64,000 nucleotides of DNA from a virus. Taxonomy: Duplodnaviria; Heunggongvirae; Uroviricota; Caudoviricetes. The notes under the pieces were generated by a model, which was not told the DNA's origin, did no database searches, and was given only the letters and a program-made list of their open reading frames with translations. Position numbers and translations under genes: made by a program. The stretch lies in IMG/VR virus record IMGVR_UViG_2623620505_000001; one strand, 5' to 3'. This document shows positions 8,757 to 36,938 of this stretch, piece by piece. Position 1 is the stretch's first letter, and each line of letters opens with the position of its first letter.

Positions 8757-8767
8757 AAGGATTTTAT

Positions 8768-9277: not shown

Positions 9278-9296
9278 GAGTCATCCCTTGTATTTT

Positions 9297-9976: not shown

Positions 9977-10026
9977 CTCCGACCTCAAACTGAAAACGCC
10001 AGGTAACTCCAGATTAGAGCAATCTA

Positions 10027-10901: not shown

Positions 10902-11702
10902 TTAGCGCGTTGCCGCGACAGGTACCAGCACACCAGCATCAAGCAATCGCTTCATCAGCCACTGCTGACCTTTGCCGGTTATACGAGTCGTGAAAGAAAT
11001 CCTGCTTCCATTGCTTGTATCGATCACGGTTTCTTTAAGGGTGAAATACCCACGGGATATGTATTCTTGTTTGGGGACGTTCCTGCGTTCACCGGTTGCG
11101 ATCAGAATTCCGTTATCACGCAACCAGGTGAAGAGATAGTTTTGGCCCAGGCCGAGCACTTTGGCATAGTTGCCGATTAGAACCCCGCTGGCGGTAGCAA
11201 CGCGTTCGGCGAATTCGACTTTAGGTGCATCCATCAGCATTTTTTGCTCCAGCCGTTGCTTTTGCTCTGCCAGGTCAGCAGCCAAACGGAGAGCTTCTGG
11301 GAGGCTCTTCGGAATAGCAGGTTGTAATCTTCCGGCTCGATAGTCGATAAATGTCTGGTTTACCTTCAGCCGAAACGCGGGAGAAATCCAGCCTGCGTAC
11401 TCCACTGCGAGCAATTCATGGGCAAAAGTGCCGCCGCCACGGCCTTCGAACGAAACTATGCAATTCTGCATAGTCTCTTTTTCAAGCTCTTCGATGAGCT
11501 GTTTGGCTGACAGCGTTCTTAGCCATTGAGCTGGCGCTTTATGGGCACCGAGTCCGCTCGCTCTGTGTAGAGCATTAAGGTTGTAACGGCCAGCGCGGTC
11601 GGTCGTAATTTCAACACCACAAATAACGGGCAGAGTGGTTGAAGGATCGACATTTTGATGAAGGTTTGATATATTCATATCCGCATTGAATGTTTGTTGC
11701 AT
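10902..11702 (-). CDS. kilA: KilA (KilA-N domain plus antirepressor-type C-terminal domain)
   Basis: 266 aa; C-terminal 130 aa clearly homologous to C-terminus of neighbouring Ant (LPEALRLAA.LAEQK...GKGQQWL). Confidence 0.8.
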   Translation of the reverse strand: MQQTFNADMNISNLHQNVDPSTTLPVICGVEITTDRAGRYNLNALHRASGLGAHKAPAQWLRTLSAKQLIEELEKETMQNCIVSFEGRGGGTFAHELLAVEYAGWISPAFRLKVNQTFIDYRAGRLQPAIPKSLPEALRLAADLAEQKQRLEQKMLMDAPKVEFAERVATASGVLIGNYAKVLGLGQNYLFTWLRDNGILIATGERRNVPKQEYISRGYFTLKETVIDTSNGSRISFTTRITGKGQQWLMKRLLDAGVLVPVAATR

Positions 11703-13129: not shown

Positions 13130-13330
13130 TCACTAACAGGTTTAACAACCTGCTACCCGCTGCTAAACAGGTGGCAGGACGTGACGGGGTTAGCAGACTG
13201 GCGTTAGTGAAACCAGCAGGCCGAAGCCTCCCCATCACGCCCCACCATAATTTGGGCGTAACGCGGTTTTACGGACACAAAAATACCGCAATATCGGATA
13301 TCTGCGGTTGTCCGCACTAACATTCAGGCT
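13130..13330 (-). ncRNA. c4: region expected to encode c4-like antisense repressor RNA (exact ends not determined)
   Basis: Known: in P1 c4 RNA lies between the operator-controlled promoter and icd. Seen: operator-like site at 13434-13450 and repeated CTGCTAAC/TAGCAG complementary elements. Boundaries are inference. Confidence 0.3.
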
Positions 13331-13433
13331 GCTAAACCCGGTCGCAGAATTTGCTACGACGGCGGAACTATAAGCCTGAACGATTAAAAGGTCAATATGA
13401 TGCGAAAAGATAGCATTCGCGACTTAAAAATAC

Positions 13434-20646: not shown

Positions 20647-21002
20647 TGGCCAACAATAACGAAATTGATCCTTTGCTGACGCTGGAGTTATCCGGCGTAA
20701 AAACGTATGAGTCCCAGGAGGAGGCCTGGGGCGCTCGTTTATATGAGTGGCTAAACACTTATCAGGGTGAGGTATACGGAGATCCGTCATGGGGCAATGT
20801 TTTACCGCTGTTTAAACACGAACCGACCAACTTGTCGCATGTTCAAATTGCGGTTGAGGCAATGCTGTTGCAAAAACTGACGGTAGATTTACCTGACATA
20901 CCGATTTCTGGCTTGTCAGTAGCCGAGGGAGATGCTTTTGATAAGTTGAAAATATCCATTCGTATCAGGGATATAACTATCACACAGGACGTGGTGCTAT
21001 GA
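20643..21002 (+). CDS. baseplate wedge protein (GPW/gp25-like)
   Basis: 119 aa, overlaps sit stop; size and position typical of gp25-like baseplate protein. Fold assignment is inference. Confidence 0.5.
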   Translation: MMANNNEIDPLLTLELSGVKTYESQEEAWGARLYEWLNTYQGEVYGDPSWGNVLPLFKHEPTNLSHVQIAVEAMLLQKLTVDLPDIPISGLSVAEGDAFDKLKISIRIRDITITQDVVL

Positions 21003-22432
21003 GTAAAACAACACCGACTAAAGACAGTATTCGTGCAGAGTTTGAAGAGCTTGTCGAGAAAGATTCATTCTGGTCGAAGTTTGTCGGCTCTCAATTTGTC
21101 TCGATGCTGACATTGTTTATTACCCAGATTGTCTACAGGTGCTTTCAGTATGCCGATGCGGCGCTGGCTGAAGGCTTTATATCGACCGCGACGCGGCGTT
21201 CCTCTATCCTGGCAGCGGCAGAAACGAATAGTTACGTTGGTACCAAGCCAACACCGTCATCGGGGATGATTGAGATCACCGCCACAAGTGAAGATGCCCC
21301 AGCGGTAATCCCCAAAAATATGCCTTTAATATCTGACGACCAGTACCCTTACATGACTATGGATGTATGCAGGTTGGTTGACGGCACCGGTACGGTAGAA
21401 GTGGCACAGTTGGAAATCCAGGAGGTGACATATACCGTTACGGCAGCCAAAGAATTTCTGGAAGTCGTGTTATCAAAGGCTCTCACTGCTGTCTGCTATA
21501 AGCTGGAAGTATTCGTGACGACCGATGGTAAGACCACGCAGTGGTCTTCCAGCACTATGTTCCGGTTAGCCGGTAGTAAAAGCCAGGTCTACGTTGAGTT
21601 TTATAAGCCATCCGAGCAGTTGGGGGTTCGATTCGGTGATGGGCTAATTGGGCAAATACCGCCAGAAGGCTCGACCATTACACTTAAGGTATGGTGCACC
21701 AACGGAGATATAACCCTGGTTGCTGGCCAAAACCTGACGCCTGTCGATTCTGCGGCTAATTTAGCTAATTTGATTTCAGTTAAGACAACGACACCCATAA
21801 CCGCAGGTACCGATGCCGAAACAACGGAGATCACACGTAATCGTGCACAATATTACCTTGCCTATGATGATCAGGTCGTATGGGGCGGGGACTATACGTA
21901 TTTTTTGGTGCGTAACATCCCGGGACTGTCCTGGGTAAAGGCATGGGGCGAAGGCCAGCAAGAGAAATTAGATGGTGCTTATAATGTTCGGAATATCAAT
22001 AAGATATTTATTTCAGGATGGCATCCAAACAAAAGCCAGTCAGAGCTTGAAGAAGTGATCCTGGCTGCCTTTAAGAAGGTGCCGAATGAGTTGAACAAGA
22101 AATTCTCGTATAAAGAGGTCAGAAAACTCCCCTTTAAGATCACTATCACTGGGCGGATATCGGCAAGCCTGACCATTGAGAACGTGACTGATGAGCTGAA
22201 GTCGGCACTGGAAACAAAATTTGGGCGTGACTCAACTTTCTTTGATCCGAACCGTGTCGGCAAGTACATCCTAATCAAGAAAAAAGACGTTTGGGCATTT
22301 ATCGAAACGCTGGGTTATTTCCGCGACTTTTATCTGGAATTTGTCGAGTGGAATGAGTCCAACGGCTTTTACGATTTCGTTTATCTGGATACAGAAAACT
22401 CCACCTTTAATATTTCGTATGAGGAGGAGTGA
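20999..22432 (+). CDS. baseplate protein (J-like; position of P1 bplA)
   Basis: 477 aa, start overlaps previous stop. Confidence 0.5.
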   Translation: MSKTTPTKDSIRAEFEELVEKDSFWSKFVGSQFVSMLTLFITQIVYRCFQYADAALAEGFISTATRRSSILAAAETNSYVGTKPTPSSGMIEITATSEDAPAVIPKNMPLISDDQYPYMTMDVCRLVDGTGTVEVAQLEIQEVTYTVTAAKEFLEVVLSKALTAVCYKLEVFVTTDGKTTQWSSSTMFRLAGSKSQVYVEFYKPSEQLGVRFGDGLIGQIPPEGSTITLKVWCTNGDITLVAGQNLTPVDSAANLANLISVKTTTPITAGTDAETTEITRNRAQYYLAYDDQVVWGGDYTYFLVRNIPGLSWVKAWGEGQQEKLDGAYNVRNINKIFISGWHPNKSQSELEEVILAAFKKVPNELNKKFSYKEVRKLPFKITITGRISASLTIENVTDELKSALETKFGRDSTFFDPNRVGKYILIKKKDVWAFIETLGYFRDFYLEFVEWNESNGFYDFVYLDTENSTFNISYEEE

Positions 22433-23268
22433 TGCAGCGTTCCTGGTTTAATAACCGGCTTACATCAGCTAAGCAAAAGTCATTACTTTATAAATCATTG
22501 GCTGATTTGGTTCAGTCAATGATGGACACCTTTGTTGACCCATGGTTGGAGCGAATTACCAACCGGAAGTCTATTTTCTCCATGAGCAAGGAGGATCTGG
22601 AGACTAGGACAAATGAACTTGGCCAGTTTTTTACTATCAGAACGTCGAATTCATCTTCCGTTCCGATGTTGTTACAACAGCGGTTTGATGAGATCCATTT
22701 TAAGGGTACTGAACGCCCTATAAACCAGACAATTTATCGCGAATTTAACGGTATATCGGTTTTATGGGATCCAATATATGCTCCGGTGGACTTTGAACGT
22801 CATCCCTATGGCACGGTCCTGATTCCAGAAAGCACACTGGAAACCACCGGCGGCACATTCGGCGAGATGTTTCTGACTTCCAGAGGAATGATCAGTATTC
22901 CCATAAACGACCTGGCCCGGACAATGGGTATTACTGGAACGATAGATCAGTCCGCAATTACAGAAGAAATTCTCAGAAAGTTTAATCAGTTCGTAAAGCC
23001 TCTACTGCCACTGCATATAGTGTTTGATGGGCTTACGCTCTATTTGTCGGTTGTTGTAAATGAACAGGCCGACATGATCACTTTGAATGAGATTTCTGAT
23101 ACCGAAAAAGCATTCTGCTGGTTTGAAACTTCGGATACAACTTCGCTTACTGAAGTTACGTCGATTAACGCCCCGATCACTGCAACGCCGGGCGGCACTA
23201 TTGTGAAAGCAACGCCTACGTTTGATCGCACCCGCGCAGATGATTTGCTGTTGGATAGCGATGCGTGA
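22429..23268 (+). CDS. baseplate/tail-fibre attachment protein (position of P1 gene 16)
   Basis: 279 aa, overlapping start/stop with preceding gene. Confidence 0.45.
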   Translation: MMQRSWFNNRLTSAKQKSLLYKSLADLVQSMMDTFVDPWLERITNRKSIFSMSKEDLETRTNELGQFFTIRTSNSSSVPMLLQQRFDEIHFKGTERPINQTIYREFNGISVLWDPIYAPVDFERHPYGTVLIPESTLETTGGTFGEMFLTSRGMISIPINDLARTMGITGTIDQSAITEEILRKFNQFVKPLLPLHIVFDGLTLYLSVVVNEQADMITLNEISDTEKAFCWFETSDTTSLTEVTSINAPITATPGGTIVKATPTFDRTRADDLLLDSDA

Positions 23269-23297
23269 CAATCACCCCGTCCGCAGGGCGGGGTGAC

Positions 23298-23316
23298 AAG
23301 TTACTTATCTTACAAT
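23298..23316 (+). promoter_or_regulatory. putative late promoter for R-S tail-fibre operon
   Basis: AAGTTACTT atct TACAAT, same element/-10 architecture as at 3888. Confidence 0.45.
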
Positions 23317-23346
23317 GAGGCTTCACAACATTGATTAGGGAAAATC

Positions 23347-23781
23347 ATGTCTGACGTCTCAACAAACCTCTATAAGAGTCAGTTGTTGGACTATTACTAT
23401 CAGCGGCGCGCTGAATCGTCCATTAACAAAGGCTCTCGATTTTTAATCAGCAAGGCCGTTTTCGGTACCAGTTCACTGGTTACTAAGAAAGGAGATGGCA
23501 CTTATGAGATTGGAGAACTGCCAAAGGCTTTCGATCTGGCAGAACTGACCAGTCAATTTTGCACCATCAACCTCGTCCCAACCTACTCAGGCGGGATAAT
23601 TACTGTCCGAATGGACCTTGATCAAAGTCAGTTGCAGGAAGGGAAAAACTACCCATTCAACACTCTGGTTGTTCTGGATAACGAGAATAAGCCAATCGCC
23701 ATTATTTGTGTCCAGGAAGACTCGCTGTATGTGGGCAAAACATATACCGCAGTTATGGCCATAAACTCGACTACAGCATAA
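23347..23781 (+). CDS. R: tail-fibre operon protein R
   Basis: 144 aa immediately upstream of S; by position. Confidence 0.5.
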   Translation: MSDVSTNLYKSQLLDYYYQRRAESSINKGSRFLISKAVFGTSSLVTKKGDGTYEIGELPKAFDLAELTSQFCTINLVPTYSGGIITVRMDLDQSQLQEGKNYPFNTLVVLDNENKPIAIICVQEDSLYVGKTYTAVMAINSTTA

Positions 23782-23792
23782 GGATATGCTTG

Positions 23793-25811
23793 ATGAATGA
23801 CGTTACAGTTGTTACATCGGTTACTTACCCATCACCCGAGTCGTTGGCTCTGGTGGCTGATGTGCAATACCACGAACCATATCTGTCAGCCGCTCTAAAC
23901 CGAAAATTCAGGGGAATTGTTGACCCGGGATTTTATGCTGGTTTCTTGCCTAAGCCTGGCGGTGGGATGAACCTGTTAATCACCTCAGTGGATGGAGATA
24001 AAACCGCTGGCGCGGCGTCAGTGGATATTGGTGAATTCTACCAGGTAACTATTCAGCATCGTAAGGATATCTCTCTTGCACTTAACGCAGGCAAGAAATA
24101 TGCAATTGTGCTGAAGGGAAGATACCTTCTTGGAGAAGATACCTATCAGGTGAATACCGCGTCACATATTCATGCAGCTGAATTTGTTGCCAGAACCTAT
24201 ACCGATTCATATCAGTTAGGTGATGGGGAACTGCTGGTTTGTACGGTGAATATCCCTGCTGGCGTATCTACCATTACTCAAGAGATGATTGATACATCCG
24301 AGCGTATCAACCGCACGATCGGCATTGATATTTCAGACTCTGTAACCAGTACCAGAAGTGATGTTGCTGCGAGTTCGCTGGCAGTTAAAAAAGCCTACGA
24401 TCTGGCGAAAAGCAAGTATACGGCGCAGGATGCAAGCACAACGCAAAAGGGATTAGTTCAGCTCAGTAGTGCCACTAACAGTACGTCCGAAGTGCTGGCC
24501 GCCACACCGAAAGCTGTCAAGGCTGCATATGACCTGGCTAACGGGAAGTATACAGCCCAGGATGCAACCACGACACAAAAAGGGATAGTTCAGCTCAGTA
24601 GCGACACCAACAGCACTTCTGAAACATTAGCTGCAACGCCAAAAGCGGTTAAAGCTGCATACGATCTAGCAGCCGGAAAGGCACCATCCAGTCATACACA
24701 TCCCTGGAATCAGATCACTGGTGTGCCAACAGCTTCATTGACAGCGAAAGGCATCACTCAGCTCAGTAGTGCCACTAACAGCACGTCTGAAGTGCTGGCC
24801 GCCACACCGAAAGCTGTCAAGGCTGCATATGACCTGGCTAACGGGAAGTATACAGCCCAGGATGCAACCACGACACAAAAAGGGATAGTTCAGCTCAGTA
24901 GCGACACCAACAGCACTTCTGAAACATTAGCTGCAACGCCAAAAGCGGTTAAAGCTGCATACGATCTAGCAGCCGGAAAGGCACCATCCAGTCATACACA
25001 TCCCTGGAATCAGATCACTGGTGTGCCAACAGCTTCATTGACAGCGAAAGGCATCACTCAGCTCAGTAGTGCCACTAACAGCACGTCCGAAGTGCTGGCC
25101 GCTACACCGAAAGCTGTCAAGGCTGCATATGATTTGGCTAATGGAAAGCAAGCGGCAGACGCTACGCTCACTGCTCTAGCGGCACTAGCTACCGCAGCAG
25201 ATAAACTCCCTTATTTCACAGGGGTTGATCGTGCCGCGTTAACTGCACTGACAAGTGTTGGACGTGCAATTCTTAGTAAGCCCAGTATTCAGAGCGTTCT
25301 TAATTACCTTGGTTTAGGGGAAGGCTCGGCGCTGCCCGTTGGTGTACCTATTCCATGGCCCTCAGCCACACCGCCAACGGGGTGGCTGAAATGCAATGGT
25401 GCAGCATTTTCTTCTGAAAAGTACCCAAATCTGGCAAAGGTTTACCCAACGTTAAAATTACCTGATTTACGCGGTGAGTTTATCCGTGGCTGGGATGATG
25501 GGCGAGGGATTGACTCTGGTCGCTCTATTTTAAGCGAGCAAGGATATGCAACGGAGGATCATGCTCACGGATTACCGTCAAAATCAACCGTAGCAACTGA
25601 CCGCTCAATTAATTTCTACTTTGACGAGGCATGGGCTACTAGTGGTAATACGGGAGTTATCAGATGGGGGAACACAAACGATGCAGGATTGCCAGCCCCT
25701 AATTATGGAACTTTTAAAACATATAAACAGTCCGTAGCTAATTTAGGTACTGCTGGCTTAGAAACCCGCCCTCGTAATATTGCATTTAATTATATTGTGA
25801 GGGCGGATTAA
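23793..25811 (+). CDS. S: tail fibre protein S (constant part Sc fused to currently expressed variable C-terminus)
   Basis: Track ORF 23706..25811 trimmed to ATG 23793 with AAGGA RBS. Repeated LAATPKAVKAAYDLA tail-fibre repeats; C-terminus ...ETRPRNIAFNYIVRAD shared with the silent cassettes. Confidence 0.85.
   Translation: MNDVTVVTSVTYPSPESLALVADVQYHEPYLSAALNRKFRGIVDPGFYAGFLPKPGGGMNLLITSVDGDKTAGAASVDIGEFYQVTIQHRKDISLALNAGKKYAIVLKGRYLLGEDTYQVNTASHIHAAEFVARTYTDSYQLGDGELLVCTVNIPAGVSTITQEMIDTSERINRTIGIDISDSVTSTRSDVAASSLAVKKAYDLAKSKYTAQDASTTQKGLVQLSSATNSTSEVLAATPKAVKAAYDLANGKYTAQDATTTQKGIVQLSSDTNSTSETLAATPKAVKAAYDLAAGKAPSSHTHPWNQITGVPTASLTAKGITQLSSATNSTSEVLAATPKAVKAAYDLANGKYTAQDATTTQKGIVQLSSDTNSTSETLAATPKAVKAAYDLAAGKAPSSHTHPWNQITGVPTASLTAKGITQLSSATNSTSEVLAATPKAVKAAYDLANGKQAADATLTALAALATAADKLPYFTGVDRAALTALTSVGRAILSKPSIQSVLNYLGLGEGSALPVGVPIPWPSATPPTGWLKCNGAAFSSEKYPNLAKVYPTLKLPDLRGEFIRGWDDGRGIDSGRSILSEQGYATEDHAHGLPSKSTVATDRSINFYFDEAWATSGNTGVIRWGNTNDAGLPAPNYGTFKTYKQSVANLGTAGLETRPRNIAFNYIVRAD
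24461..25140 (+). repeat. 300-bp tandem duplication inside S (2.3 copies, near-perfect)
   Basis: Seen: 24541-24780 identical to 24841-25080; unit encodes 100 aa of tail-fibre repeats. Confidence 0.9.
25297..25322. other. mix/cix-type 26-bp inversion crossover site 1 (at Sc/Sv junction, opposite orientation to sites 2-6)
   Basis: Reverse complement TTCCCCTAAACC AA GGTAATTAAGAA; resembles known gix/hix half-site pattern TTCC..TAAACC. Confidence 0.75.
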
Positions 25812-25816
25812 TTATA

Positions 25817-26428
25817 TCAACTGGCTGTAGAAAGTTGTTTTTCAGGCCAGTTGAGATCTGGTGCCGTGGTTAAATCCATCGCGTTCAGCTCGTCTATATA
25901 ATCTAGCACGGAGTTAAGCTGCGTGGTTTCTGCCTGCGTCAACTTCCGTCCAGCCCGTAATTTCAACTGAATCAGACTAATGGAATCCATCGCAGTATCA
26001 ATCAATGACTGACGTTTTGTTTCTGCTGCCTCTACAGCTGCACTATGTTGAGCCTCAGTATCAACCACCCATTTCTCTCCATCCCATTTGTCGTATGGTG
26101 TTAGCGGGGCGATAGTGGTTGTATTTTCCGGATAGTCACCCAACACCGTGATTTCTTCGGGATTCCCAGTGTCAATGCTATAGACAGTTTCGCCACGATG
26201 ATCTGGCACATACTCCCATGAACTTAAATCCTCTGAACGGAGAATCGCATAACCTGCTTTATGTGAGCCTGGAGCATCCAAACAAGAATTTGCCGGAATA
26301 CCAACGCCAACAGCAAGATATTCAGTTGATGCAGAAATATATTCCCGATTACCACCATCATAGTTATAAACGATAATGTTTCCTGCCTGTATGGCTATAA
26401 GTTCGCTATTTAATATCGCATTATCCAT
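25817..26428 (-). CDS. U: tail fibre assembly protein (U/Tfa family), inverted relative to S
   Basis: 203 aa; C-terminus ...LNAMDLTTAPDLNWPE resembles Tfa C-terminal motif; start overlaps stop of cassette B. Confidence 0.8.
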   Translation of the reverse strand: MDNAILNSELIAIQAGNIIVYNYDGGNREYISASTEYLAVGVGIPANSCLDAPGSHKAGYAILRSEDLSSWEYVPDHRGETVYSIDTGNPEEITVLGDYPENTTTIAPLTPYDKWDGEKWVVDTEAQHSAAVEAAETKRQSLIDTAMDSISLIQLKLRAGRKLTQAETTQLNSVLDYIDELNAMDLTTAPDLNWPEKQLSTAS

Positions 26429-26886
26429 TATGCTGCTCTCACAATATAATTGAAGGCAATGTTACGTGGGCGGGTTTCATTCCCCCCAGATAACTCCGTT
26501 CTGTATTGACTGGTAAATTTACCATTAATCGCTCCTTGCCGGACGGCGTTATCTGTCGACAACAGACTATCCCCCCCTCTGTCATTTGGCACCAATACCG
26601 TGTTATCCCACGCGTCCCATGACCGAATATTATGATAATGACTTCCTGTTAACCACCCCTGTATGCTTAAGATGACCCTTCCCGCATCCACACCTCGCCC
26701 ATCATCCCAGCCACGGATAAACTCACCGCGTAAATCAGGTAATTTTAACGTTGGGTAAACCTTTGCCAGATTTGGGTACTTTTCAGAAGAAAATGCTGCA
26801 CCATTGCATTTTAGCCAGCCCGTTGGTGGTGTTTCTAAGGGCCACGGAACGGGCACACCAACAGGCAGTGCAGAGCCTTCCCCCAA
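26428..26886 (-). other. silent alternative S C-terminal cassette B (promoterless; followed by U)
   Basis: Encodes GEGSALPVGVPVPWP...ETRPRNIAFNYIVRAA with unique central region; 5' end is mix site 2. Confidence 0.8.
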
Positions 26887-26903
26887 ACCAACGTTTTTAT
26901 GTG
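26878..26903. other. mix site 2
   Basis: TTCCCCCAAACCAACGTTTTTATGTG. Confidence 0.75.
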
Positions 26904-27370
26904 GCCCTTACAATGTAATTAAAAGCAACGTTGCGGGGGCGCATTGATATCCATGCCCCGGTAAAATTATCCTCTGCCGTCCTTTGAGTGCCTGTTATGG
27001 AGTTATCTGATGATGCTAGAACATAATCGCTATTATCTCCTGCTTTAGGATTAGCAGGGTTTCCAACAGTTATAACAGAATCAGCAGTAGCATAAGCGAT
27101 ACCTACTTTGACATTAGTAGTCAGATCGACACCGTAATAATCCTGCAAAGCTGTACGAATAAATGTTGCAGTCTGACCACTTAGCAATGAACGCCCTGTA
27201 TCAATCCCTCTCGAATCATCCCAACCACGGATAAACTCACCGCGTAAATCAGGTAATTTTAACGTTGGGTAAACCTTTGCCAGATTTGGGTACTTTTCAG
27301 AAGAAAATGCTGCTCCGTTACATTTCAGCCACCCCGTTGGTGGTGTGGCGGAGGGCCACGGAACAGGCAC
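26897..27370 (-). other. silent alternative S C-terminal cassette C (reading frame continues to mix site 3 at 27392)
   Basis: 157-aa ORF with conserved N/C ends; identical to cassette at 28376-28849. Confidence 0.8.
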
Positions 27371-27391
27371 ACCAACGGGCAGCGCCGAGCC

Positions 27392-27417
27392 TTCCCCTAA
27401 ACCAACGTTTTTATGCC
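27392..27417. other. mix site 3
   Basis: TTCCCCTAAACCAACGTTTTTATGCC; overlaps stop codon of next cassette. Confidence 0.75.
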
Positions 27418-27878
27418 GCCCTTACGATGTAATTAAATGCAATATTACGGGGGCGGGTTTCAGATGCTGTACGAACTGAGCGAGAGGCGTCGAATGTCCA
27501 GTTATAAGAGCCATAACCCTCAATAATTTCCGTTTCCTTTAGGCCTGTAGATAATACTTGACCATGTTGACTAAATGGCCCTGAACTAAGTACATCTCTA
27601 AAAAGCTGAGTACGCCCGAAAGAACCAACAATATTCTGAATTGCATCATTCTGTGCAGATAATAAATTACGGCCAGAGTCAATCCCCCGCCCGTCATCCC
27701 AGCCGCGAATAAATTCGCCCCGTAGATCCGGCAATTTATTAGTAGGGTAAACCTTTGCCAGATTTGGGTACTTTTCAGAAGAAAATGCTGCACCATTGCA
27801 TTTCAGCCACCCCGTTGGCGGTGTGGCTGAGGGCCATGGAACAGGTACACCAACGGGCAGTGCCGAGCCTTCCCCCAA
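27411..27878 (-). other. silent alternative S C-terminal cassette D
   Basis: 155-aa ORF, conserved ends, distinct core. Confidence 0.8.
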
Positions 27879-27895
27879 ACCAACGTTTTTATGCC
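27870..27895. other. mix site 4
   Basis: TTCCCCCAAACCAACGTTTTTATGCC. Confidence 0.75.
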
Positions 27896-28365
27896 GCCCT
27901 TACGATGTAATTAAATGCGATATTTCGTGGACGGGTTTCACTCCCGCCAGTATTACCAATACTCCCTCGAGAATGAAGTGTCGGTGATGGAATCAAATTC
28001 CCTCCTGTATTTGAGGCATCAAGCCCCCGTCCTTGTGTGTATGTTTTTTTGAAAATTGTCGCCAGCTCCCATTCATCTTTTGTGTCGTAACCATCATTGG
28101 CTACAACAATATGTCGGTGCTTTTCCAGCATTCCTGTCTGAATGCTCAATAAAGCACGTCCCGCATCCACCCCGCGCCCATCATCCCAGCCGCGAATAAA
28201 TTCTCCCCGTAAATCCGGTAATTTATTGGTGGGGTAGGCCTTTGCCAGTTTGGGATACATTTCAGAAGAAAATGCTGCTCCGTTACATTTCAGCCACCCC
28301 GTTGGCGGTGTTTCTAAGGGCCACGGAACGGGCACGCCAACGGGCAATGCTGAGCCTTCCCCCAA
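27889..28365 (-). other. silent alternative S C-terminal cassette E
   Basis: 158-aa ORF, conserved ends, distinct core. Confidence 0.8.
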
Positions 28366-28382
28366 ACCAACGTTTTTATGTG
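28357..28382. other. mix site 5
   Basis: TTCCCCCAAACCAACGTTTTTATGTG. Confidence 0.75.
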
Positions 28383-28849
28383 GCCCTTACAATGTAATTA
28401 AAAGCAACGTTGCGGGGGCGCATTGATATCCATGCCCCGGTAAAATTATCCTCTGCCGTCCTTTGAGTGCCTGTTATGGAGTTATCTGATGATGCTAGAA
28501 CATAATCGCTATTATCTCCTGCTTTAGGATTAGCAGGGTTTCCAACAGTTATAACAGAATCAGCAGTAGCATAAGCGATACCTACTTTGACATTAGTAGT
28601 CAGATCGACACCGTAATAATCCTGCAAAGCTGTACGAATAAATGTTGCAGTCTGACCACTTAGCAATGAACGCCCTGTATCAATCCCTCTCGAATCATCC
28701 CAACCACGGATAAACTCACCGCGTAAATCAGGTAATTTTAACGTTGGGTAAACCTTTGCCAGATTTGGGTACTTTTCAGAAGAAAATGCTGCTCCGTTAC
28801 ATTTCAGCCACCCCGTTGGTGGTGTGGCGGAGGGCCACGGAACAGGCAC
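28376..28849 (-). other. silent cassette C-prime (exact duplicate of cassette C)
   Basis: Predicted protein identical to 26897..27370; DNA identical over about 538 bp. Confidence 0.8.
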
Positions 28850-28870
28850 ACCAACGGGCAGCGCCGAGCC

Positions 28871-28896
28871 TTCCCCTAAACCAACGTTTTAGTCTT
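28871..28896. other. mix site 6 (outermost, next to invertase gene)
   Basis: TTCCCCTAAACCAACGTTTTAGTCTT. Confidence 0.7.
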
Positions 28897-28950
28897 AATC
28901 CCTACCTATACCAACGATGTATTTTTAACTAAACAAAGAGGTTGTTTTTC

Positions 28951-29523
28951 ATGCAAATTGGCTACATTCGTGTGTCAACAAATGACCAAAACACAGATTT
29001 ACAAAGAAATGCACTGAATTGCGCAGGATGTGAACTGATTTTTGAAGATAAAATAAGCGGAACAAAGTCAGCCAGACCAGGCTTGAAAAAGCTGCTCAGA
29101 ACGTTATCAGAAGGAGATACGCTGGTTGTCTGGAAGCTGGATAGGCTTGGCAGAAGTATGAAACACCTTATCACGCTTATAGAGGAGTTGCGGGAAAAAG
29201 GTGTTAATTTCCGTAGTCTGACAGACAGTATTGACACATCAACACCCATGGGGCGTTTCTTTTTTCATGTCATGGGTGCTTTAGCAGAAATGGAACGTGA
29301 ATTAATTGTTGAGAGAACACTGGCCGGACTGGCAGCTGCACGCGAACAGGGACGCATTGGCGGACGTCGCCCGAAGTTGACAAAAGAACAACATGAGCAA
29401 ATAGCGAGGTTGATCGAAAATGGCTACAGCAGGAAACAGTTGGCAATTATTTACGATATCGGTGTATCGACGATTTATCGTTATCATCCTGTAGAGAAGC
29501 GCCAAACTCAATCTGAGCTGTAA
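28951..29523 (+). CDS. cin: serine DNA invertase (Cin/Min/Gin/Hin family)
   Basis: Track ORF 28942..29523 trimmed to ATG 28951 (AAAGAGG RBS); N-terminal catalytic motif IGYIRVSTNDQ, C-terminal HTH; adjacent to the inversion sites. Confidence 0.9.
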   Translation: MQIGYIRVSTNDQNTDLQRNALNCAGCELIFEDKISGTKSARPGLKKLLRTLSEGDTLVVWKLDRLGRSMKHLITLIEELREKGVNFRSLTDSIDTSTPMGRFFFHVMGALAEMERELIVERTLAGLAAAREQGRIGGRRPKLTKEQHEQIARLIENGYSRKQLAIIYDIGVSTIYRYHPVEKRQTQSEL

Positions 29524-29958
29524 TTCTAATGCCGCGTCGGTGTAATTTATCTTGATAGAATAGGTACATTTATCGCGCGGCACATCAATTCGATGTATCT
29601 AGCGCCTGCTGACCGCTAATGAAAACTGTTCTCGAAATGTTGTCCCTAGTCCGAGACTAGGGTATCACCTCTGGAAAGCATACGCAGAACCTTTTTTAAC
29701 CCAGGGTGCCCAGTTTTTTTGCTGCTCGCCTTATTCGCAAAAATTAGCTCACATCCTGCGCTTTCAAGTGCTTTTCACTGCATAGCTGTGTTTTGTTCAT
29801 TTGTCTATATGCATACATAGCCTATTAACATATTTTCTGCCCACTATCGTTATTTATTGCAAGCTACAGGTTTTAATTAACAAAACCAGTGTGTGTGGAA
29901 ATCACAAAGTGCATACCGTTCTCAAATGTTGTTCAACTTACTGTTGTATAGGTAAAAA

Positions 29959-30222
29959 ATGACATTTTATGTACATATCGTGATGTTATCCCTTCTTGGT
30001 GGGGTGTATTCGTATTTGAGTGGGCTATGTGAAAACCGTTACGAGTCTTCATGCAAGAAATTGCTGGCCGAATGTATTTCCGCCGTACTTGCTGGCTTTA
30101 TTGGCATGTATCTCGCGGAATATAAGGACATGAATGAAAGCCTTCAGAGCTGCATGGTTCTTATTTTCAGCGCCAATAGCAGGCTTATTATTGAAGGTTC
30201 CAAAAGTCGGTTGAATAGGTAA
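29959..30222 (+). CDS. small hydrophobic protein (possible lysis-associated)
   Basis: 87 aa with two hydrophobic segments, in AT-rich region between invertase and lysis genes. Confidence 0.35.
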   Translation: MTFYVHIVMLSLLGGVYSYLSGLCENRYESSCKKLLAECISAVLAGFIGMYLAEYKDMNESLQSCMVLIFSANSRLIIEGSKSRLNR

Positions 30223-30249
30223 GTCTCTTATGCAACATAACCGGTTGAG

Positions 30250-30268
30250 AAGTTACTTTGCATACCAT
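30250..30268 (+). promoter_or_regulatory. putative late promoter for lysis/dar operon
   Basis: AAGTTACTT tgca TACCAT about 30 nt upstream of the GTG start with AGGAGGG RBS. Confidence 0.4.
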
Positions 30269-30296
30269 TACCTCCTGACAACGTAGGAGGGAACTT

Positions 30297-30626
30297 GTGC
30301 TTGACACACAGGAATTAGCTCCAGTTGCTATTGCGCTCCTGCTTTCAGTAATTGGTGGGATAGGCACGTTCCTGATGGATGTCCGAGACGGTCGCCAGTC
30401 TGGCAATTTGTTGGGATTGGTTACGGAGATCTTTGTTGCAGTGACAGCTGGCGCGGTGGCGTACCTATTGGGGCAACACGAGGGCTGGGAGTTATCAATT
30501 ACGTACTTAATGGTAACGATAGCCAGCAATAACGGTCATGAGGTGATTTCAGGGATGAAACGAGTGAATATCGATAGCATTCTGAATGTTCTTACAAGTT
30601 TGGTGAAAAAGGGAGGCGGGAAATGA
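30297..30626 (+). CDS. holin-like membrane protein (position of P1 lydA)
   Basis: 109 aa, hydrophobic helices, first gene of operon leading to darA. Holin role is inference. Confidence 0.5.
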   Translation: MLDTQELAPVAIALLLSVIGGIGTFLMDVRDGRQSGNLLGLVTEIFVAVTAGAVAYLLGQHEGWELSITYLMVTIASNNGHEVISGMKRVNIDSILNVLTSLVKKGGGK

Positions 30627-31066
30627 TTGGCTGGGGTGTATGCGTTCTTGCGTTAGCCTTAGCCGATCGCTATTTGCTAAAACGCAAGGACATCACGCAT
30701 TTAGAACTTGGTGATGTGGAAATTAAACCGGGTTTCATCCGGGTGCCGTTCAAATACCGGTCTAAATTCCCGTTTTTGCGCGGCGCAACGGTCAGATATT
30801 GGATCCGCGATGTTCAGAAGCCGACGACAGTGATTGAAGGCGAACAACGTTGTTTGACGTCGGCTGAACAGGGCGAAAACAGTGAATGGTTGTACATACC
30901 CACTGAATATATGGGTAAAGGAGAGCGACTGTGGCATTTCAACGTCATGGTTACGCATGGCGACTCGTTCATTAACCCGTTGTATCGGATTTTCCCTGTT
31001 ACTCAGCAAATCCGCAGAAGTTACGTAATAAATCTCGCACAGGATGTGTCAGATGACGAAAAATAA
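30623..31066 (+). CDS. hypothetical protein (position of P1 lydB antiholin)
   Basis: 147 aa, overlaps previous stop. Confidence 0.4.
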   Translation: MIGWGVCVLALALADRYLLKRKDITHLELGDVEIKPGFIRVPFKYRSKFPFLRGATVRYWIRDVQKPTTVIEGEQRCLTSAEQGENSEWLYIPTEYMGKGERLWHFNVMVTHGDSFINPLYRIFPVTQQIRRSYVINLAQDVSDDEK

Positions 31067-31655
31067 GTATGCAACGGTCGATTTTGACCAGGTTAATGAA
31101 AAGGGGCTGAAATCCCTTATCGCGGCGATCAATAAAACCGGTGTTACGGTAATTGAGGTTGACTCCAGCAACCGCGCAACAACGAAAGATGGCGTTAAAG
31201 TTAAAACCGCAAAGCTGGTTCTTAACGACGGACAAATTCTTGCCATACAGGTAAACGATACTGGCGATATATCGTCTGTGAGGCTGAATGGAAAAGCTAT
31301 TCCTAACGCTCAGTCGCCGGATATCAAGACGCTTGGTACCGTCATGGGGCAAGCGGCCCGCAAAAACTCCGCAAAATTCCAGAAATCACTGATCGCCAAA
31401 GCGAAACGTGTTGCCAATCCGGTAGACAAGAAACCGGCAGTAAAATCCAACTTTCAGCGCCTGCAAGAGGCAAAACAGCGGAATGCTCAGGTGGTTGCCG
31501 CTTATAAATCAGCGCAGAACTCGGTGTCTTTCAATCAACAGCAGATCACTGATTTGCGGGCGAAGCTGGATAAGGAGACAGGCCGACTCAATAACGAAAA
31601 GGCCCGAAATGGCGAACTCAAACGCCGTCTTAAGCAACTGAAAGCAGGAAATTAA
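31044..31655 (+). CDS. hdf: Hdf-like protein (homologous to a segment of DarA)
   Basis: Seen: ARKNSAKFQKSL in this ORF vs AEKNSAKFQRAQ in the downstream 639-aa protein, plus coiled-coil C-terminus. Confidence 0.6.
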   Translation: MCQMTKNKYATVDFDQVNEKGLKSLIAAINKTGVTVIEVDSSNRATTKDGVKVKTAKLVLNDGQILAIQVNDTGDISSVRLNGKAIPNAQSPDIKTLGTVMGQAARKNSAKFQKSLIAKAKRVANPVDKKPAVKSNFQRLQEAKQRNAQVVAAYKSAQNSVSFNQQQITDLRAKLDKETGRLNNEKARNGELKRRLKQLKAGN

Positions 31656-31656
31656 C

Positions 31657-33576
31657 ATGGAACAGTTCAATATCAATAAAGGGGTGACGATCAAGCCTGG
31701 GCTTGACGTGCTTCCCCCGCCAGTGACTGATGATGAATATCGCGCATTAATGGCCGGTGAGGACCGCTATCTGATGACGGAATCCAACACCCTGGAGGAA
31801 ATCGAGGCTACGTTCTTCTATGACACGCCGATCCACTGGTGTGCTACGGATTTACTGGAGGCGATTAGTTCTACTCGTTTGCAGTTACACCGGACCATGC
31901 AGGCATTTGTCCGGGCATTGAACCAGAAGCTGAATGGTACCGGAATCTCTGCGGGGAGTGATAAAACGGGGGATGTGGCCCAGAGCGGCGCGCGCGCGAT
32001 CGGCGGTGCTGAAATTGGCCGGGCACGTAACGTTAACGGGCTGCCGGTCCTGCCAGCCATTATTCCGCTCAGTGATGGTCAGACTATCAGCATTCTGTTT
32101 CATAGCCCGACAGCGGAAAACCGGATCACCAATAGCGATACGCTGGTTGCTTTCCAGTTCTTACTGAATAAAAAAGACGTTACTCACACCGTTGCTCCGA
32201 TGAGTGGACGTGATATGACGCTGGCGCAGGTCACCATGAAACTTGCCAACCTTGCAGAGAAAAACTCGGCAAAATTTCAGCGTGCGCAGAAGAAGAAAAA
32301 AGCCCTTGTTGATGAAATAACCCAACTACAGGCTGACAGTGACCAGAAAGAGGATGCCATGAGCGACCTCGTGGATCAGGTGGCAGCGGTAGAAGGGCAG
32401 AAGGTAGATCTGGAGCAGAAAATTAACGCTGTTGCATCGGAAGCGGATTCTCTTTATGAAGAGAATGAGCGTTTGCAGACGGAGATTGATCAGCTCAATC
32501 GCACTGGTGGGCGCGATACCATTGCTCCTGCGGGGATGACTGGTGGACACTCTCGCGCGATGACGGATCGCCTTGCCAGTATCAAAAATCGTATGCATAT
32601 GAACGGGGAAGTGACGCTCAGTAATGGTGCATCAATGAAGCAATTCATTGAGGACGGCGAAGGGTATATCCAGTTAACCGATTCGGATGGCAGCGTGTAC
32701 ATGATCAAGGCTAAATCCATACAGGGTGTGGACATGGCAGATGCGATCGGCAAGCTGTTTAAAGCCTATAAAGCGGGTAATGTATCGGAATACCTGGTCC
32801 AACCAGAAGAACATAAACCGGAAAACGTCGAACCTGAACCAGCGGAGGATACCGGTAGCTCTTCGCCTGAACCAGAAGTCTCTGTAGGTGCATATCGATA
32901 TGCCCTGCAAATGCGTCCGGCGGCCCCTGGCGCAATACCTGAAGGTAACAAAGCAATTCTGCCGCGCCCTGATGAAGGTGACCCGTATTATGAATATGCA
33001 CGCTACGGCATTGCTACTTACGATACCCCGCTTTCTGATCAGCAAATGAGTGAGTACGACCTGAAGTTATTGCCTCGCGAGGATTCTTTCGACTTCCTGG
33101 CGAAGACACTTACTAATGGTCCGTTTGGCAAATATGCACAAAAAGCTCTGGAGCTGGCCACCAGCTCACCAGACGAGTTCCGCGTAATGCTGAAAACTCA
33201 GTTTCAAAAAACTTTCCCCAATATTGCGTTTCCGGGGGGCGCTGGCACCGAGAAAATGGTGCAGAGCATGATCAATGCATTGCAGGCCGAAGTCGGTGAG
33301 ATTACTCAGCCAGAACCTGCCCCGGCACAGCCTGATGAAACGGTTAGCGAAGCAGATGCAGAGGCTAATAAAGCCATTGAATATCTCAATAACGTGATGG
33401 ATATGCAAAGCACTGACATGGCGGAGATCCGTAACGCCCGGGGTAATGTCCGGGAAGCGATTGCAGCCCTTCAGGCTGCCGGGCGTTTTGAGGAAAACGA
33501 AGAGCTGGTTAATGGCGCTGCTCGCCACTTGGCTGATCTGCTGGTAGCAATCCAGAAAGCGGGGGTAGCGGCATGA
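31657..33576 (+). CDS. darA: DarA-like capsid-internal anti-restriction protein
   Basis: 639 aa (size of P1 DarA as I recall); followed by ddrA/ddrB-sized genes. Confidence 0.7.
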   Translation: MEQFNINKGVTIKPGLDVLPPPVTDDEYRALMAGEDRYLMTESNTLEEIEATFFYDTPIHWCATDLLEAISSTRLQLHRTMQAFVRALNQKLNGTGISAGSDKTGDVAQSGARAIGGAEIGRARNVNGLPVLPAIIPLSDGQTISILFHSPTAENRITNSDTLVAFQFLLNKKDVTHTVAPMSGRDMTLAQVTMKLANLAEKNSAKFQRAQKKKKALVDEITQLQADSDQKEDAMSDLVDQVAAVEGQKVDLEQKINAVASEADSLYEENERLQTEIDQLNRTGGRDTIAPAGMTGGHSRAMTDRLASIKNRMHMNGEVTLSNGASMKQFIEDGEGYIQLTDSDGSVYMIKAKSIQGVDMADAIGKLFKAYKAGNVSEYLVQPEEHKPENVEPEPAEDTGSSSPEPEVSVGAYRYALQMRPAAPGAIPEGNKAILPRPDEGDPYYEYARYGIATYDTPLSDQQMSEYDLKLLPREDSFDFLAKTLTNGPFGKYAQKALELATSSPDEFRVMLKTQFQKTFPNIAFPGGAGTEKMVQSMINALQAEVGEITQPEPAPAQPDETVSEADAEANKAIEYLNNVMDMQSTDMAEIRNARGNVREAIAALQAAGRFEENEELVNGAARHLADLLVAIQKAGVAA

Positions 33577-33938
33577 CACTATCAGCTATTGAGTTAATGG
33601 ATCTCAGCGATAAGTTGGATGCTTTGATGTCCAAAGCGGCTACCGCGAGTGGCATGGAGTTGCTGGATATCAGCGATGAAATTGACCAGATCATGCAACA
33701 GATGGGGTACGGTGTGTCCGGTGGCAGTAGTGGCGAGGAAAAACAACCTTCGGTACATGATGGTGTGCCAAAACTGGTTGCTGATTTCCTGGCTGATAAA
33801 TTCGTCGATCAGAGCACCGATGCATTTATCGGTACCTTGCAGGATTTGAGTCAATATGTTGGCACATACATCGACCTGGACCAGGTTAAACAGCACACGG
33901 CGGCATGGATAGCCGCCAACATTAAAGAGGCAGCATAA
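33573..33938 (+). CDS. ddrA: DdrA-like protein
   Basis: 121 aa, overlapping start, dar operon position. Confidence 0.55.
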   Translation: MTLSAIELMDLSDKLDALMSKAATASGMELLDISDEIDQIMQQMGYGVSGGSSGEEKQPSVHDGVPKLVADFLADKFVDQSTDAFIGTLQDLSQYVGTYIDLDQVKQHTAAWIAANIKEAA

Positions 33939-33950
33939 GGCGTAACAGGG

Positions 33951-36938
33951 ATGAGCTTAAGCGATCAGGTGGTAATGGCCACCAGCATAGAAACGCTGAT
34001 CGAGCTGCTAAAGAACCTGCCCGGTTATGGGCGGGTTTCGTATGTGGTGACAGCGAAGGGAGACGAGGTAAAAACAGCGTTTGATATCGTCGATGCCTCA
34101 GCTCTTTTGGTATCCAATACTCTGGATGGGAAAATTAATCCTGACTATCCCCAGGAACTTCAGCCGCGCGACCGGACCCGCGCATCCAGCCTTCTTCAGG
34201 TTAACCAGATATCCAAAGATTTGCGGCCTGCTCAGCTTACTGATTCCGGTTTATCCAGCCATGGTGCGCCGATAATTGGTGAGGACAATGCCGTTGAGTC
34301 AGGTAATGGACGGACCATGGGGATCATCAAAGCCTATCAGGACGGCAATGCGGATCGGTATCGTGAGTACCTGATTGAACATGCGACCGAATTCGGCATA
34401 CCTCCTGAAAAGGTTGAATCAATGACGGCTCCGGTACTGGTGCGCCGCCGGTTAACTAAGGTTGACCGCGTTCAGTTTGCCAAGGACTCAAATATTTCTG
34501 ATCTTCAGGAAATGGCAGCCAGTGAAAAAGCTTTTGTTGATGCCGACAGCATAACACCGGCGATGATGGCGCTTTTTAACCCGTCAGAAAGCGGAGATCT
34601 GCTTAGCCGCAGTAATGACGCGTTTATTCGCGGATTTATGACGCAAGTTGGTGCCACACAGGCGGCTGGCCTTGTAATGGAAGATGGGCGACCAACGCGG
34701 CAACTTGTTGACCGTATACAAAACGCGATCTTTGCCAAGGCATATAAGGATGCGCGCCTGGTAAGGATGGTTGCAGAAGAACCTGATCCGGATATGCGTA
34801 ATGTTCTGACGGCGCTTAATGCGGCAGCCAATGATTTTGTCCAGATGCAGGCTTTATCAGGAGAAGCGCACAAGCAGGCTGTGACAACTATTGTTGATGG
34901 CATTGAGACAGCGGATAGCCTCGATAAAAAGGCGCTGGCGGCATTGAAAGATGCGGTAGACCTGGTAAGGCAATCGAAGGAGTCAGGCCAGCATATTACC
35001 GATGTTATTGCTCAGGGGGATATGTTCAGCGAAACGGCCCCGGAAGTGAAAGCACTCGCGTTGTTCATCGTCGCGAATAACCGTAGCGCGAAGCGTATGG
35101 CCACCGCCTTTAAGTTGATGGCTCAACGTATCAATGATGAGTTACAGCACCAGGGCCAGGCGCTGGGGGATATGTTTGGCGGTGGTGATGTGTCGTTACA
35201 GGATATCCTTCGCCAGGTGTCTCAGGAACTGGAAAACGAAGGCATGCAAGGGATATCCGGCGGTCTTTTCGAGTCCGTTTCCGGCGGTAGTTACAATGGT
35301 GTTGCTCCATATACCAGTTTGCTATTACATCGGGCATCCGGCATCAAAGACATTATTCATCTGATCAGGCTGCTTTCCCGTACAGATCCCCAGGATGAAC
35401 AGCTTGTACAAGTGCTTGCGCATTTTGTTCGAATGCCTGTTGCCGACGTGAAAAAATGGTGCCGATTATTCGGTATCAGCAATTCGTTACTTCGCGGCTT
35501 GTTAAATCACGCATCCTCCCTTGGGCGCGATGGCTTTGACGAGATAGCGCAGGCGATAAAAAACGGAGATATGCCACCAGCTATTGACTGGTTTTCCATT
35601 CGCCCAACCAGGGTGAAAGCATTCCTTAGCGCGGCGCATTCGGCATCACCATTGGCAGAAATGGTTCAGAGGTTGTCGCTCATATTCACAGACCATACCG
35701 CGTTGGGTGATCTGACTCTGGACGAGATGAAAGAAGCCTCCATTCAGTGGGCCGATCAACAAAATGAGGTTAACTCTGACTTCTTGCCAGCATTCAGGAA
35801 GGCCGTTAGTAAAGCTGATGATGCCCGTGGAATTCTGAGGGCATTTAAGGCATTGCAAAGTCAGGTTAATAAACATGTCGGTGATATCGATGGGGTAACG
35901 GCGGAAGGCAGGGATATCCTTAAAGAGCACGGCATAACGCCAGAGTTTATTGATGAGATCAGGACTGATATGCAGCGTGAGGTCGTATCGTCCCTGCAAA
36001 TCGTAGCCAGAGCGTTGGCGGATGCTAATCCGAAGAGTGCGGCCATTGTTAACCGTGTTATTGGTGATATTGAAGCATCGGAGGGCATGGGGGCGCTGAA
36101 ACTCTTCCTTTCGCGAGCGTTTAATCCTAACGGCAATATTCTCCCCGGCATTATTGGTGAGGCTAAAAAGTATGTCAGCGAAGAAGAACTTGAGCATCTT
36201 GACCAACTACTTAAGCGATTCTCATATAACCCGCAGACACGCTGGCAAATGAATCAGCAAAGTATGGGTTCGGTCCACGAGAAAGTGTTATCTGCCATGA
36301 ACAGTGCGATCGCCAACTCATCCGTATCTGAAGAAAAAGCTCTTGAGTGGGCCGACTCTTTTATCACGGAAGAAGTGGAAGAAGCCCGCGCTGGACAGAA
36401 TGGTGGGATAGACCTGCGCAAGGAACTTGCTGATATTTATCGCCTGACCGGCGGTAAAATTTCGACCTTATCAAAGGTGGTTCACCACCAGGGAAGGGCA
36501 TATGCAAATATTAATGGTGTTGTTGCTGTCAATTTGAACGATGAAAATGCAAGTGCACTGTGGCACGAGCTGGGTCATCATCTTGAGTACAGTAACCCTG
36601 GTTTGTTAGAGAAAGCCCGGTCATTCCTGAAGGCCAATGTTGAAGGGGATAAGCCATCTTTCGTTAATATCGGTGGGCGTGGCAAGCCTGAATGGTGCTT
36701 CAGATCTCGATTGAGTAATATTTATATGGCGAAGGTATACCCGCCAGCCTCAGTAAGTAACACCGGGAAAATTCGGCAGAAATCACCGACTATTTCCAAA
36801 ACGTCAGCAACGGAAGTATTCTCTATGGCTCTTCAGTTGTATCATGACAAAGAGGCCGCTGCCGCATCACTGATGAATGGTGACGGATTGCTGGAACTGT
36901 TATTAGGTGTGGCAAAGGAGCTAAATAATGCAGATTAA
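33951..36938 (+). CDS. ddrB: DdrB-like large dar-operon protein
   Basis: 995 aa following ddrA; by position/size. Confidence 0.6.
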   Translation: MSLSDQVVMATSIETLIELLKNLPGYGRVSYVVTAKGDEVKTAFDIVDASALLVSNTLDGKINPDYPQELQPRDRTRASSLLQVNQISKDLRPAQLTDSGLSSHGAPIIGEDNAVESGNGRTMGIIKAYQDGNADRYREYLIEHATEFGIPPEKVESMTAPVLVRRRLTKVDRVQFAKDSNISDLQEMAASEKAFVDADSITPAMMALFNPSESGDLLSRSNDAFIRGFMTQVGATQAAGLVMEDGRPTRQLVDRIQNAIFAKAYKDARLVRMVAEEPDPDMRNVLTALNAAANDFVQMQALSGEAHKQAVTTIVDGIETADSLDKKALAALKDAVDLVRQSKESGQHITDVIAQGDMFSETAPEVKALALFIVANNRSAKRMATAFKLMAQRINDELQHQGQALGDMFGGGDVSLQDILRQVSQELENEGMQGISGGLFESVSGGSYNGVAPYTSLLLHRASGIKDIIHLIRLLSRTDPQDEQLVQVLAHFVRMPVADVKKWCRLFGISNSLLRGLLNHASSLGRDGFDEIAQAIKNGDMPPAIDWFSIRPTRVKAFLSAAHSASPLAEMVQRLSLIFTDHTALGDLTLDEMKEASIQWADQQNEVNSDFLPAFRKAVSKADDARGILRAFKALQSQVNKHVGDIDGVTAEGRDILKEHGITPEFIDEIRTDMQREVVSSLQIVARALADANPKSAAIVNRVIGDIEASEGMGALKLFLSRAFNPNGNILPGIIGEAKKYVSEEELEHLDQLLKRFSYNPQTRWQMNQQSMGSVHEKVLSAMNSAIANSSVSEEKALEWADSFITEEVEEARAGQNGGIDLRKELADIYRLTGGKISTLSKVVHHQGRAYANINGVVAVNLNDENASALWHELGHHLEYSNPGLLEKARSFLKANVEGDKPSFVNIGGRGKPEWCFRSRLSNIYMAKVYPPASVSNTGKIRQKSPTISKTSATEVFSMALQLYHDKEAAAASLMNGDGLLELLLGVAKELNNAD

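Follow-up and report, generated by a model that had tools for sequence, protein, structure and literature searches.

An exactly repeated tail-fibre cassette in a putative Min-type inversion switch of the plasmid prophage p1303_95

In the tail-fibre array of the plasmid prophage p1303_95, one silent cassette is present twice, letter for letter, and the duplicated unit is exactly one invertible segment, running from crossover core to crossover core. We favour the reading that this segment truly exists in two copies within a Min-type switch, and we put the probability of this reading at roughly 0.55. The analysis was carried out on a stretch of 64,000 nucleotides, hereafter the window, which belongs to GenBank CP009168.1, the P1-like plasmid prophage p1303_95 (94,959 bp) of E. 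coli 1303, a bovine mastitis strain; the stretch of this record that we retrieved (18897-35370) is 100% identical to the window, with coordinates unchanged. Judged from sequence, the backbone is P1-like: it is ~99% identical across 25 kb to IncY phage-plasmids of ~95 kb in size, it contains a C4 antisense RNA and a sok RNA, the genes for DarA, LydB and a holin adjoin the tail-fibre array, and both Cre and loxP are present.

Results

Anatomy of the array

The features of the array, and the two backbone features used below, are the following.

23793..25310, plus strand: constant 5' part of the tail-fibre gene, called Sc (ORF list, Pfam and gene call)
25297..25322, minus strand: crossover site s0 (scan match 25306-25322), which joins Sc to the expressed cassette A and is inverted with respect to the other five sites
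25311..25811, plus strand: cassette A, the currently expressed C-terminal receptor-binding part, in frame with Sc (GLGEGS...IVRAD, then stop; Collar)
25817..26428, minus strand: tail-fibre assembly (chaperone) gene (Pfam Caudo_TAP, E 3e-30)
26428..26889, minus strand: silent cassette B, second head of the double-headed segment (translation, Collar)
26878..26903, plus strand: crossover site s1, B head / C tail (pattern scan)
26873..27411, minus strand: repeat copy 1, that is, silent cassette C with two half-sites (coding from 27403 down to 26897)
27392..27417, plus strand: crossover site s2, C head / D tail (pattern scan)
27411..27881, minus strand: silent cassette D (Pfam, translation)
27870..27895, plus strand: crossover site s3, D head / E tail (pattern scan)
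27889..28368, minus strand: silent cassette E (Pfam, translation)
28357..28382, plus strand: crossover site s4, E head / C' tail (pattern scan)
28352..28890, minus strand: repeat copy 2, that is, silent cassette C' (coding from 28882 down to 28376)
28871..28896, plus strand: crossover site s5, C' head / outer flank beside the invertase gene (pattern scan)
28951..29523, plus strand: Min/Gin-type serine DNA invertase of 190 aa (Pfam Resolvase, E 2e-51, and HTH_7, E 3e-15)
29655..29831, minus strand: truncated second invertase gene (tblastn; residues 1-59, 61% identical to the intact invertase)
54415-55443: Cre, the dimer-resolution gene
55862: loxP, perfect match

The longest open reading frame over the tail-fibre gene runs from a TTG start at 23706 to 25811, and the called coding sequence (23793-25811) specifies 672 aa with six Phage_fiber_2 domains and a Collar domain; a 300-bp tandem repeat lies inside Sc (24458-25148). 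The tail-fibre assembly gene is the sole one, and is enclosed in the double-headed A-tfa-B segment in the same orientation as cassette B. Residues 1-185 of the invertase aligned by phmmer (E 2e-91) with a chain of PDB 3UJ3/4M6F whose deposited name is 'DNA-invertase' and which we take to be Gin of phage Mu. NCBIfam profiles returned no informative names.

Scanning with the pattern TTCCCCYAAACC-AA-SGT detected six crossover sites, one on the minus strand and five on the plus strand. All six read TTCCCCYAAACC-AA-SGTTT..., with a half-site identical to that of the EC958 Phi2 site, which is tabulated together with the family consensus in PMC4134206; the window's sites match the 26-bp Din-family crossover sites of prophage tail-fibre switches listed there. 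In the coding direction, all six cassettes begin after their site with GGT TTR GGG GAA, in frame with Sc, stay open for 153-168 codons and end in ...RPRN[IV]AFNYIVRA. The array is of the kind that had been predicted from the DNA letters, a diversity-generating array of silent cassettes.

The anatomy is seen directly, and we infer the inversion function from the family. Every site consists of an upstream tail (the Sc end, a cassette's stop-codon end or the outer flank) and a cassette head, and the invertase would swap the partners. The lone inverted site, at the end of Sc, would be recombined by the serine invertase with one or another of the five sites of opposite orientation, and every such inversion would fuse another 3' cassette in frame to Sc and reshuffle the rest. 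Comparison among relatives suggests that the segment does occur in alternative orientations, as the same cassettes are found on either strand and also fused to Sc (the exact C allele at Sc in locus L115; C> in L085 and L118).

Arrangements were counted by breadth-first enumeration of inversions between oppositely oriented sites. Four single cassettes and one double-headed segment give 240 labelled arrangements, 120 of them distinguishable when two singles are identical. In 96 of the 240 (40%), it is cassette C that is joined to Sc, and in 80 of the 240 the two copies of C stand in opposite orientation. Without the extra copy, 48 arrangements are obtained, with C fused to Sc in 25%. Since C and C' are the same, five different fusion proteins are possible instead of six.

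Kinship with known inversion systems

The array shares with the Din family (Hin/Gin/Cin/Pin/Min) both the enzyme, a small serine recombinase (~190 aa) that has its resolvase catalytic domain at the N-terminus and a helix-turn-helix at the C-terminus, and its substrate, 26-bp imperfectly symmetric sites with a 2-bp core, inverted around invertible DNA. Gin, Cin and Hin work with a Fis-bound recombinational enhancer in cis, located within the 5' end of the invertase gene. The C segment of P1 with Cin and the G segment of Mu with Gin resemble the array in the invertase family, in the logic of the 3'-end swap and in the 26-bp sites with their 2-bp core. P1 and Mu, however, possess two sites, two fibre ends and an assembly gene for each, whereas the window has six sites, five or six ends and one assembly gene. 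The R64 shufflon (Rci) is likewise a multiple-inversion cluster, with several 3' cassettes behind one constant 5' gene part, but there a tyrosine recombinase acts on sfx repeats of 19 bp and the product varied is a pilus adhesin, in contrast to the serine invertase and Din-type sites of the window. As the recombinase beside the array is a serine enzyme, the array is not an R64-type shufflon.

Min of p15B from E. coli 15T- shares with the array a P1-related IncY plasmid prophage as its carrier, a constant 5' tail-fibre part containing internal repeats, a set of six crossover sites, one double-headed segment beside several single 3' cassettes, and an adjoining Gin/Cin-like invertase gene followed by a truncated second invertase gene. 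This last arrangement, an invertase gene and then a truncated second one, is said to have been described for p15B by Sandmeier et al. in 1991. The six crossover sites of p15B go with six different variable ORFs. The sole departure of the window from the description of p15B is that its C equals C', leaving five fibres where p15B has six different cassettes. For p15B Min, 240 possible isomers are given (PMC2481393), the same number as enumerated for the window. Moreover, a plasmid of the type of L001, a related locus, is reported to match p15B min at 99% identity along 92% of its length, and the window is 97-99% identical to L001. The isomer number and this kinship point to the array being a p15B Min-type multiple-inversion tail-fibre switch; the cassette set varies from plasmid to plasmid, and the kinship to p15B is indicated indirectly, by way of the L001 type.

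The repeat and its limits

The original prediction described a perfect 538-bp direct repeat of one cassette on either side of cassettes D (27411-27881) and E (27889-28368), and both the repeat and its position were borne out: 26873-27410 and 28352-28889 are identical at 538 of 538 positions, and the exact match can be extended to at most 539 bp (26873-27411 and 28352-28890). The remaining cassette pairs have 80-90% identity over the first 225 nt, with a longest exact run of 119 bp, and we found no repeat of comparable size elsewhere in the 64-kb window. Chance or the usual similarity within the family could thus be ruled out, as exact runs in the other pairs are at most 119 bp and their heads 80-90% identical. 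An insertion sequence or other mobile repeat was also discarded, since what is repeated is a tail-fibre cassette that encodes a Collar domain, and the window contains no further large repeats.

The limits of the identity were then located with respect to the crossover sites. On the left, the repeat sets in 17 nt ahead of the AA core of s1 (26878) and s4 (28357), and these 17 nt are common to the heads of the neighbouring cassettes B and E; the first base outside the repeat is already mismatched (26872 versus 28351). On the right, it extends 6 nt beyond the AA core of s2 (27392) and s5 (28871). Crossover sites mark both limits of the identity, and hence the duplicated unit is one invertible segment and nothing else. 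Such a core-to-core unit points to recombination, or to an assembly path, through the crossover sites, rather than to random duplication of a segment or to gene conversion acting locally. The crossover-to-crossover extent of the unit had not been part of the earlier description.

Both copies carry a T at cassette position 385, which specifies Leu where other alleles have Pro. We considered whether this T was a substitution private to the plasmid and rejected it, because three other assemblies carry it too; for the same reason, it is of no use for dating the duplication.

Duplicated cassettes in related arrays

About 100 related loci were parsed with the same site and cassette script. Arrays lying beside identical or near-identical invertases contain from 2 to 17 cassettes, implying that cassettes are frequently gained and lost; one of the very large arrays, with 17, is that of NZ_CP135665.1. 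Duplicates are present in two of the 19 arrays with at least three intact cassettes, the loci having been sampled by invertase only. Cassette C itself occurs twice in L085 (inverted and identical), in L109 (one difference) and in L118 (five differences, in the head), and the six-site layout of L118 is that of the window with H replacing D. Other cassettes behave similarly: L110 and L111 hold several identical cassette pairs, L091 has E four times among 17 cassettes, L108 has G twice in tandem, L134 has E twice with one difference, L087 has D twice and I twice (3 and 6 differences), and L104/L123 has M twice with 3 differences, one of them in the variable part. Pairs that differ by 1-6 bases cannot be one copy assembled twice, so that real paralogues exist. 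Read from the database records, duplicated cassettes are a recurrent minority state in related arrays. They are not rare there, which makes the duplication in the window plausible biology. Identical direct repeats had been called unexpected in such an array; with duplicates in about one tenth of the related arrays, and some of the pairs slightly diverged, this was too strong. Some database duplicates lie in error-laden arrays (e.g. L083), and not all of them are trustworthy.

Each context of C in the window was also encountered singly in independent assemblies. The B|C junction is found in L101 and in L113, the latter an independent assembly with the exact same C allele; the order C-D-E-invertase is found in L116 and L117, and the order E-C-invertase in L004, L089 and L001, L004 being an independent contig with one mismatch in C. 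By BLAST, the C-specific 286 bp matched at 86 places among plasmids, spread over 74 records, and at 293 among E. coli sequences, spread over 257. From one plasmid to another, C alleles vary chiefly at their two ends, over ~100 nt at the start and ~20 nt at the finish. Regarding independent assemblies of p1303_95 itself, an exact-protein look-up of the Sc-A fusion matched the source record only, and that of cassette C matched the source and three short contigs from other samples, with no second p1303_95 assembly among them.

Genuine copy, chimeric assembly or gene conversion

The single occurrences of each context argue for a real copy, and so does the tidiness of the record, in which four single cassettes lie in one orientation with no frameshifts. 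The perfect identity of the two copies points the other way: an artefact predicts 100% identity, which a real duplication would show only if it were recent or homogenised. An assembly artefact would mean that the true plasmid has one C, five sites and three single cassettes, and that the finishing path crossed C twice. This could have come about from a mixture of inversion isomers, with B|C and C|D from one isomer being joined by hand to E|C and C|invertase from another. We regard this explanation, including the route just described, as possible but doubtful. The way in which the genome of E. coli 1303 was assembled is compatible with it. The genome was built from 454 reads and Illumina reads of 101 bp; Sanger reads were the longest used, and this strain had no large-insert library. 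The contigs from Newbler and MIRA were combined manually in Gap4, with PCR primer walking and Sanger sequencing filling the gaps. When isomers are mixed, PCR can connect cassettes that do not lie side by side in the main molecule. The order in the record is the exact merge of C-D-E-invertase, as in L116 and L117, with E-C-invertase, as in L004 and L089, and a chimeric path would look alike.

Similar difficulties are documented for such regions. The EC958 genome paper (PMC4134206) warns that artefactual duplications can result when alternative alleles of an invertible phage tail region are integrated. Among the related long-read records, L083, L084 and L086 show consensus damage in the array, indicating that isomer mixtures do disturb assemblies, and short-read assemblies break within the array, the L004 contig stopping inside it.

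Several observations nevertheless count against the artefact. Firstly, by enumeration, four inversion steps separate the single-copy isomers that it needs; with both in one culture, many other isomers should be present too, including cassettes in plus orientation, and yet the record is tidy and its cassettes are intact. Secondly, a single-copy C would match D and E in read depth, which argues against a finisher using C twice. Thirdly, Sanger reads of 700-900 nt can span 539 bp, so that a true duplication was resolvable with the methods used. The slightly diverged genuine duplicates in related arrays weigh in the same direction.

The perfect match could also have arisen by gene conversion, if one of the two places was formerly occupied by another, sixth cassette and C was copied over it by homologous recombination starting in the conserved head and tail. 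Cassette heads (80-90% identical over 225 nt) and tails would supply the homology; the variation of C alleles mostly at their ends (first ~100 and last ~20 nt) implies that patchy end exchange occurs, and conversion localised at crossover sequences is described for P1 Cin (reference 51 in PMC4134206). A conversion tract primed in flanking homology should, however, have arbitrary ends and mosaic neighbours, whereas the identity fills the whole segment and halts at both crossover sites, and the heads of B and E stay fully distinct. Conversion is thus very improbable as the source of the second copy. A recent duplication, a substrate for RecA-mediated deletion and a mis-assembly of inversion isomers had been put forward at the outset; this was the right set of candidates, and each of them keeps some likelihood.

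Discussion

If the second copy of C is genuine, as we favour, it may have been gained by unequal exchange between two plasmid copies or two inversion isomers. The exchange point would be either two different crossover sites, by invertase-mediated fusion, or the conserved ~235-bp cassette heads, by RecA. The resulting dimer would then be resolved through Cre/loxP or RecA, one product gaining C and the other losing it, and subsequent inversions may have separated the C copies. Intermolecular fusion and deletion mediated by the invertases Cin and Gin are announced in the titles of Kennedy 1983 and Plasterk 1983. We abandoned the attempt to deduce the origin from the order C-D-E-C: later inversions can move the copies anywhere, and the order is therefore silent on whether a tandem duplication or an exchange between isomers was the first event.

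Once present, the two copies could themselves become substrates. As a direct repeat, the 539 bp could, by homologous recombination, delete C-D-E (1,479 bp), as we infer from the layout; as oppositely oriented copies, they could drive inversion independently of the invertase.

Whether the repeat is real or artefactual, the array belongs to an established class of switch, in a plasmid already published, and is no new type of system. Were the repeat an artefact, it would be a caution that finished genomes produced without long reads may hold chimeric invertible tail-fibre arrays, and that genes annotated 'phage tail protein' in such arrays are silent 3' fragments. If the repeat is real, it is a small illustration of cassette birth and death in multi-cassette inversion switches, and copy number could bias the receptor-binding tip that the P1-like phage-plasmid displays. 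Since P1-like elements commonly carry resistance genes in Enterobacteriaceae, their host range is of practical interest.

Beyond this plasmid, we tentatively propose, while holding it to be somewhat less than an even bet, that cassette copy number in Min-type arrays is a recurrent heritable variable, and that an extra copy is not an error and biases the host-range lottery of the phage progeny. Unequal exchange at crossover sites between plasmid copies or isomers would then make arrays grow and shrink, between 2 and 17 cassettes, and an extra copy would weight the switch, with C-tipped fibres in 40% instead of 25% of the arrangements.

Cassette alleles and gene calls

We compared alleles of cassette C at about 35 loci (L089, L100 and L118, for example) and found that their differences cluster in the first ~100 nt, on the crossover-site side, and in the last ~20 nt; the receptor-specific middle is almost constant. 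The pattern suggests a patchy swapping of ends among cassettes. The silent cassettes (window 26428-28890) are called as separate 'phage tail protein' genes with GTG or TTG starts, likewise in related records; these called genes are 3' gene fragments without a start of their own, an annotation problem raised too in PMC4134206.

Large and damaged arrays in other records

The array of L091 (NZ_CP135665.1, locus 1-10000) comprises 17 cassettes in the record, all open, and that of L110 (NZ_JBXSEY010000003.1) comprises 13, two of which are disrupted; several cassettes are present in 2-4 copies. These very large arrays may be real expansions or else assembly products. Some complete plasmid records carry indel-laden, frameshifted array cassettes, namely L083 (NZ_CP041630.1, 5004-5755), L084 and L086. 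At L083, a clean C-E pair adjoins a damaged C-E pair; the damage fits either a long-read consensus drawn from mixed inversion isomers or repeats left unpolished. Short-read contigs often stop upstream of the invertase gene, within ~100-1100 bp of it, as in L004 (NZ_PTRE01000134.1) and at many other loci, and invertible arrays of this type are routine break points of draft assemblies. A more distant relative, L180 (IMGVR_UViG_2698536335_000014; invertase identity 84%), contains identical cassettes at 9282-9791 and 10979-11488, one on each side of the invertase gene.

P1-like features and an invertase remnant

Outside the cassettes, the window contains the following features, the three RNA matches being Rfam matches that score above gathering:

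9544-9718, minus strand, sok antitoxin RNA
13167-13252, minus strand, C4 antisense RNA
13321-13373, minus strand, a1/b1 targets of C4
17059-17628, tandem repeat (unit 297 bp, 1.9 copies, 81% matches) in the gene of a 1229-aa transglycosylase (SLT domain)
29655-29831, minus strand, remnant of a second invertase gene
54415-55443, minus strand, Cre recombinase
55862-55895, perfect 34-bp loxP site

C4 and the a1/b1 targets correspond to immI, the immunity region of P1. Cre is 99.7% identical to the P1 Cre sequence. The invertase remnant, downstream of the intact invertase gene, retains residues 1-59 only (61% identity to the intact invertase) and resembles the truncated 'psi-win' gene, which is reported to adjoin min in p15B.

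The tail-fibre gene and its assembly gene

Two further features belong to the fibre operon and the double-headed segment (cassette A, assembly gene, cassette B), respectively:

24458-25148, tandem repeat (unit 300 bp, 2.3 copies, 97% matches) within the tail-fibre gene's constant part
25817-26428, minus strand, tail-fibre assembly gene, the sole one in the array

The assembly gene shares its orientation with cassette B only; none of the other cassettes is immediately followed by a chaperone gene. Half of the arrangements leave the assembly gene in antisense orientation with respect to the fibre operon. In the close relative CP056447.1 (L003), the fibre gene is 600 bp longer and aligns to the window at 300-bp offsets; hence, the repeat number differs among plasmids, and fibre length presumably differs along with it.
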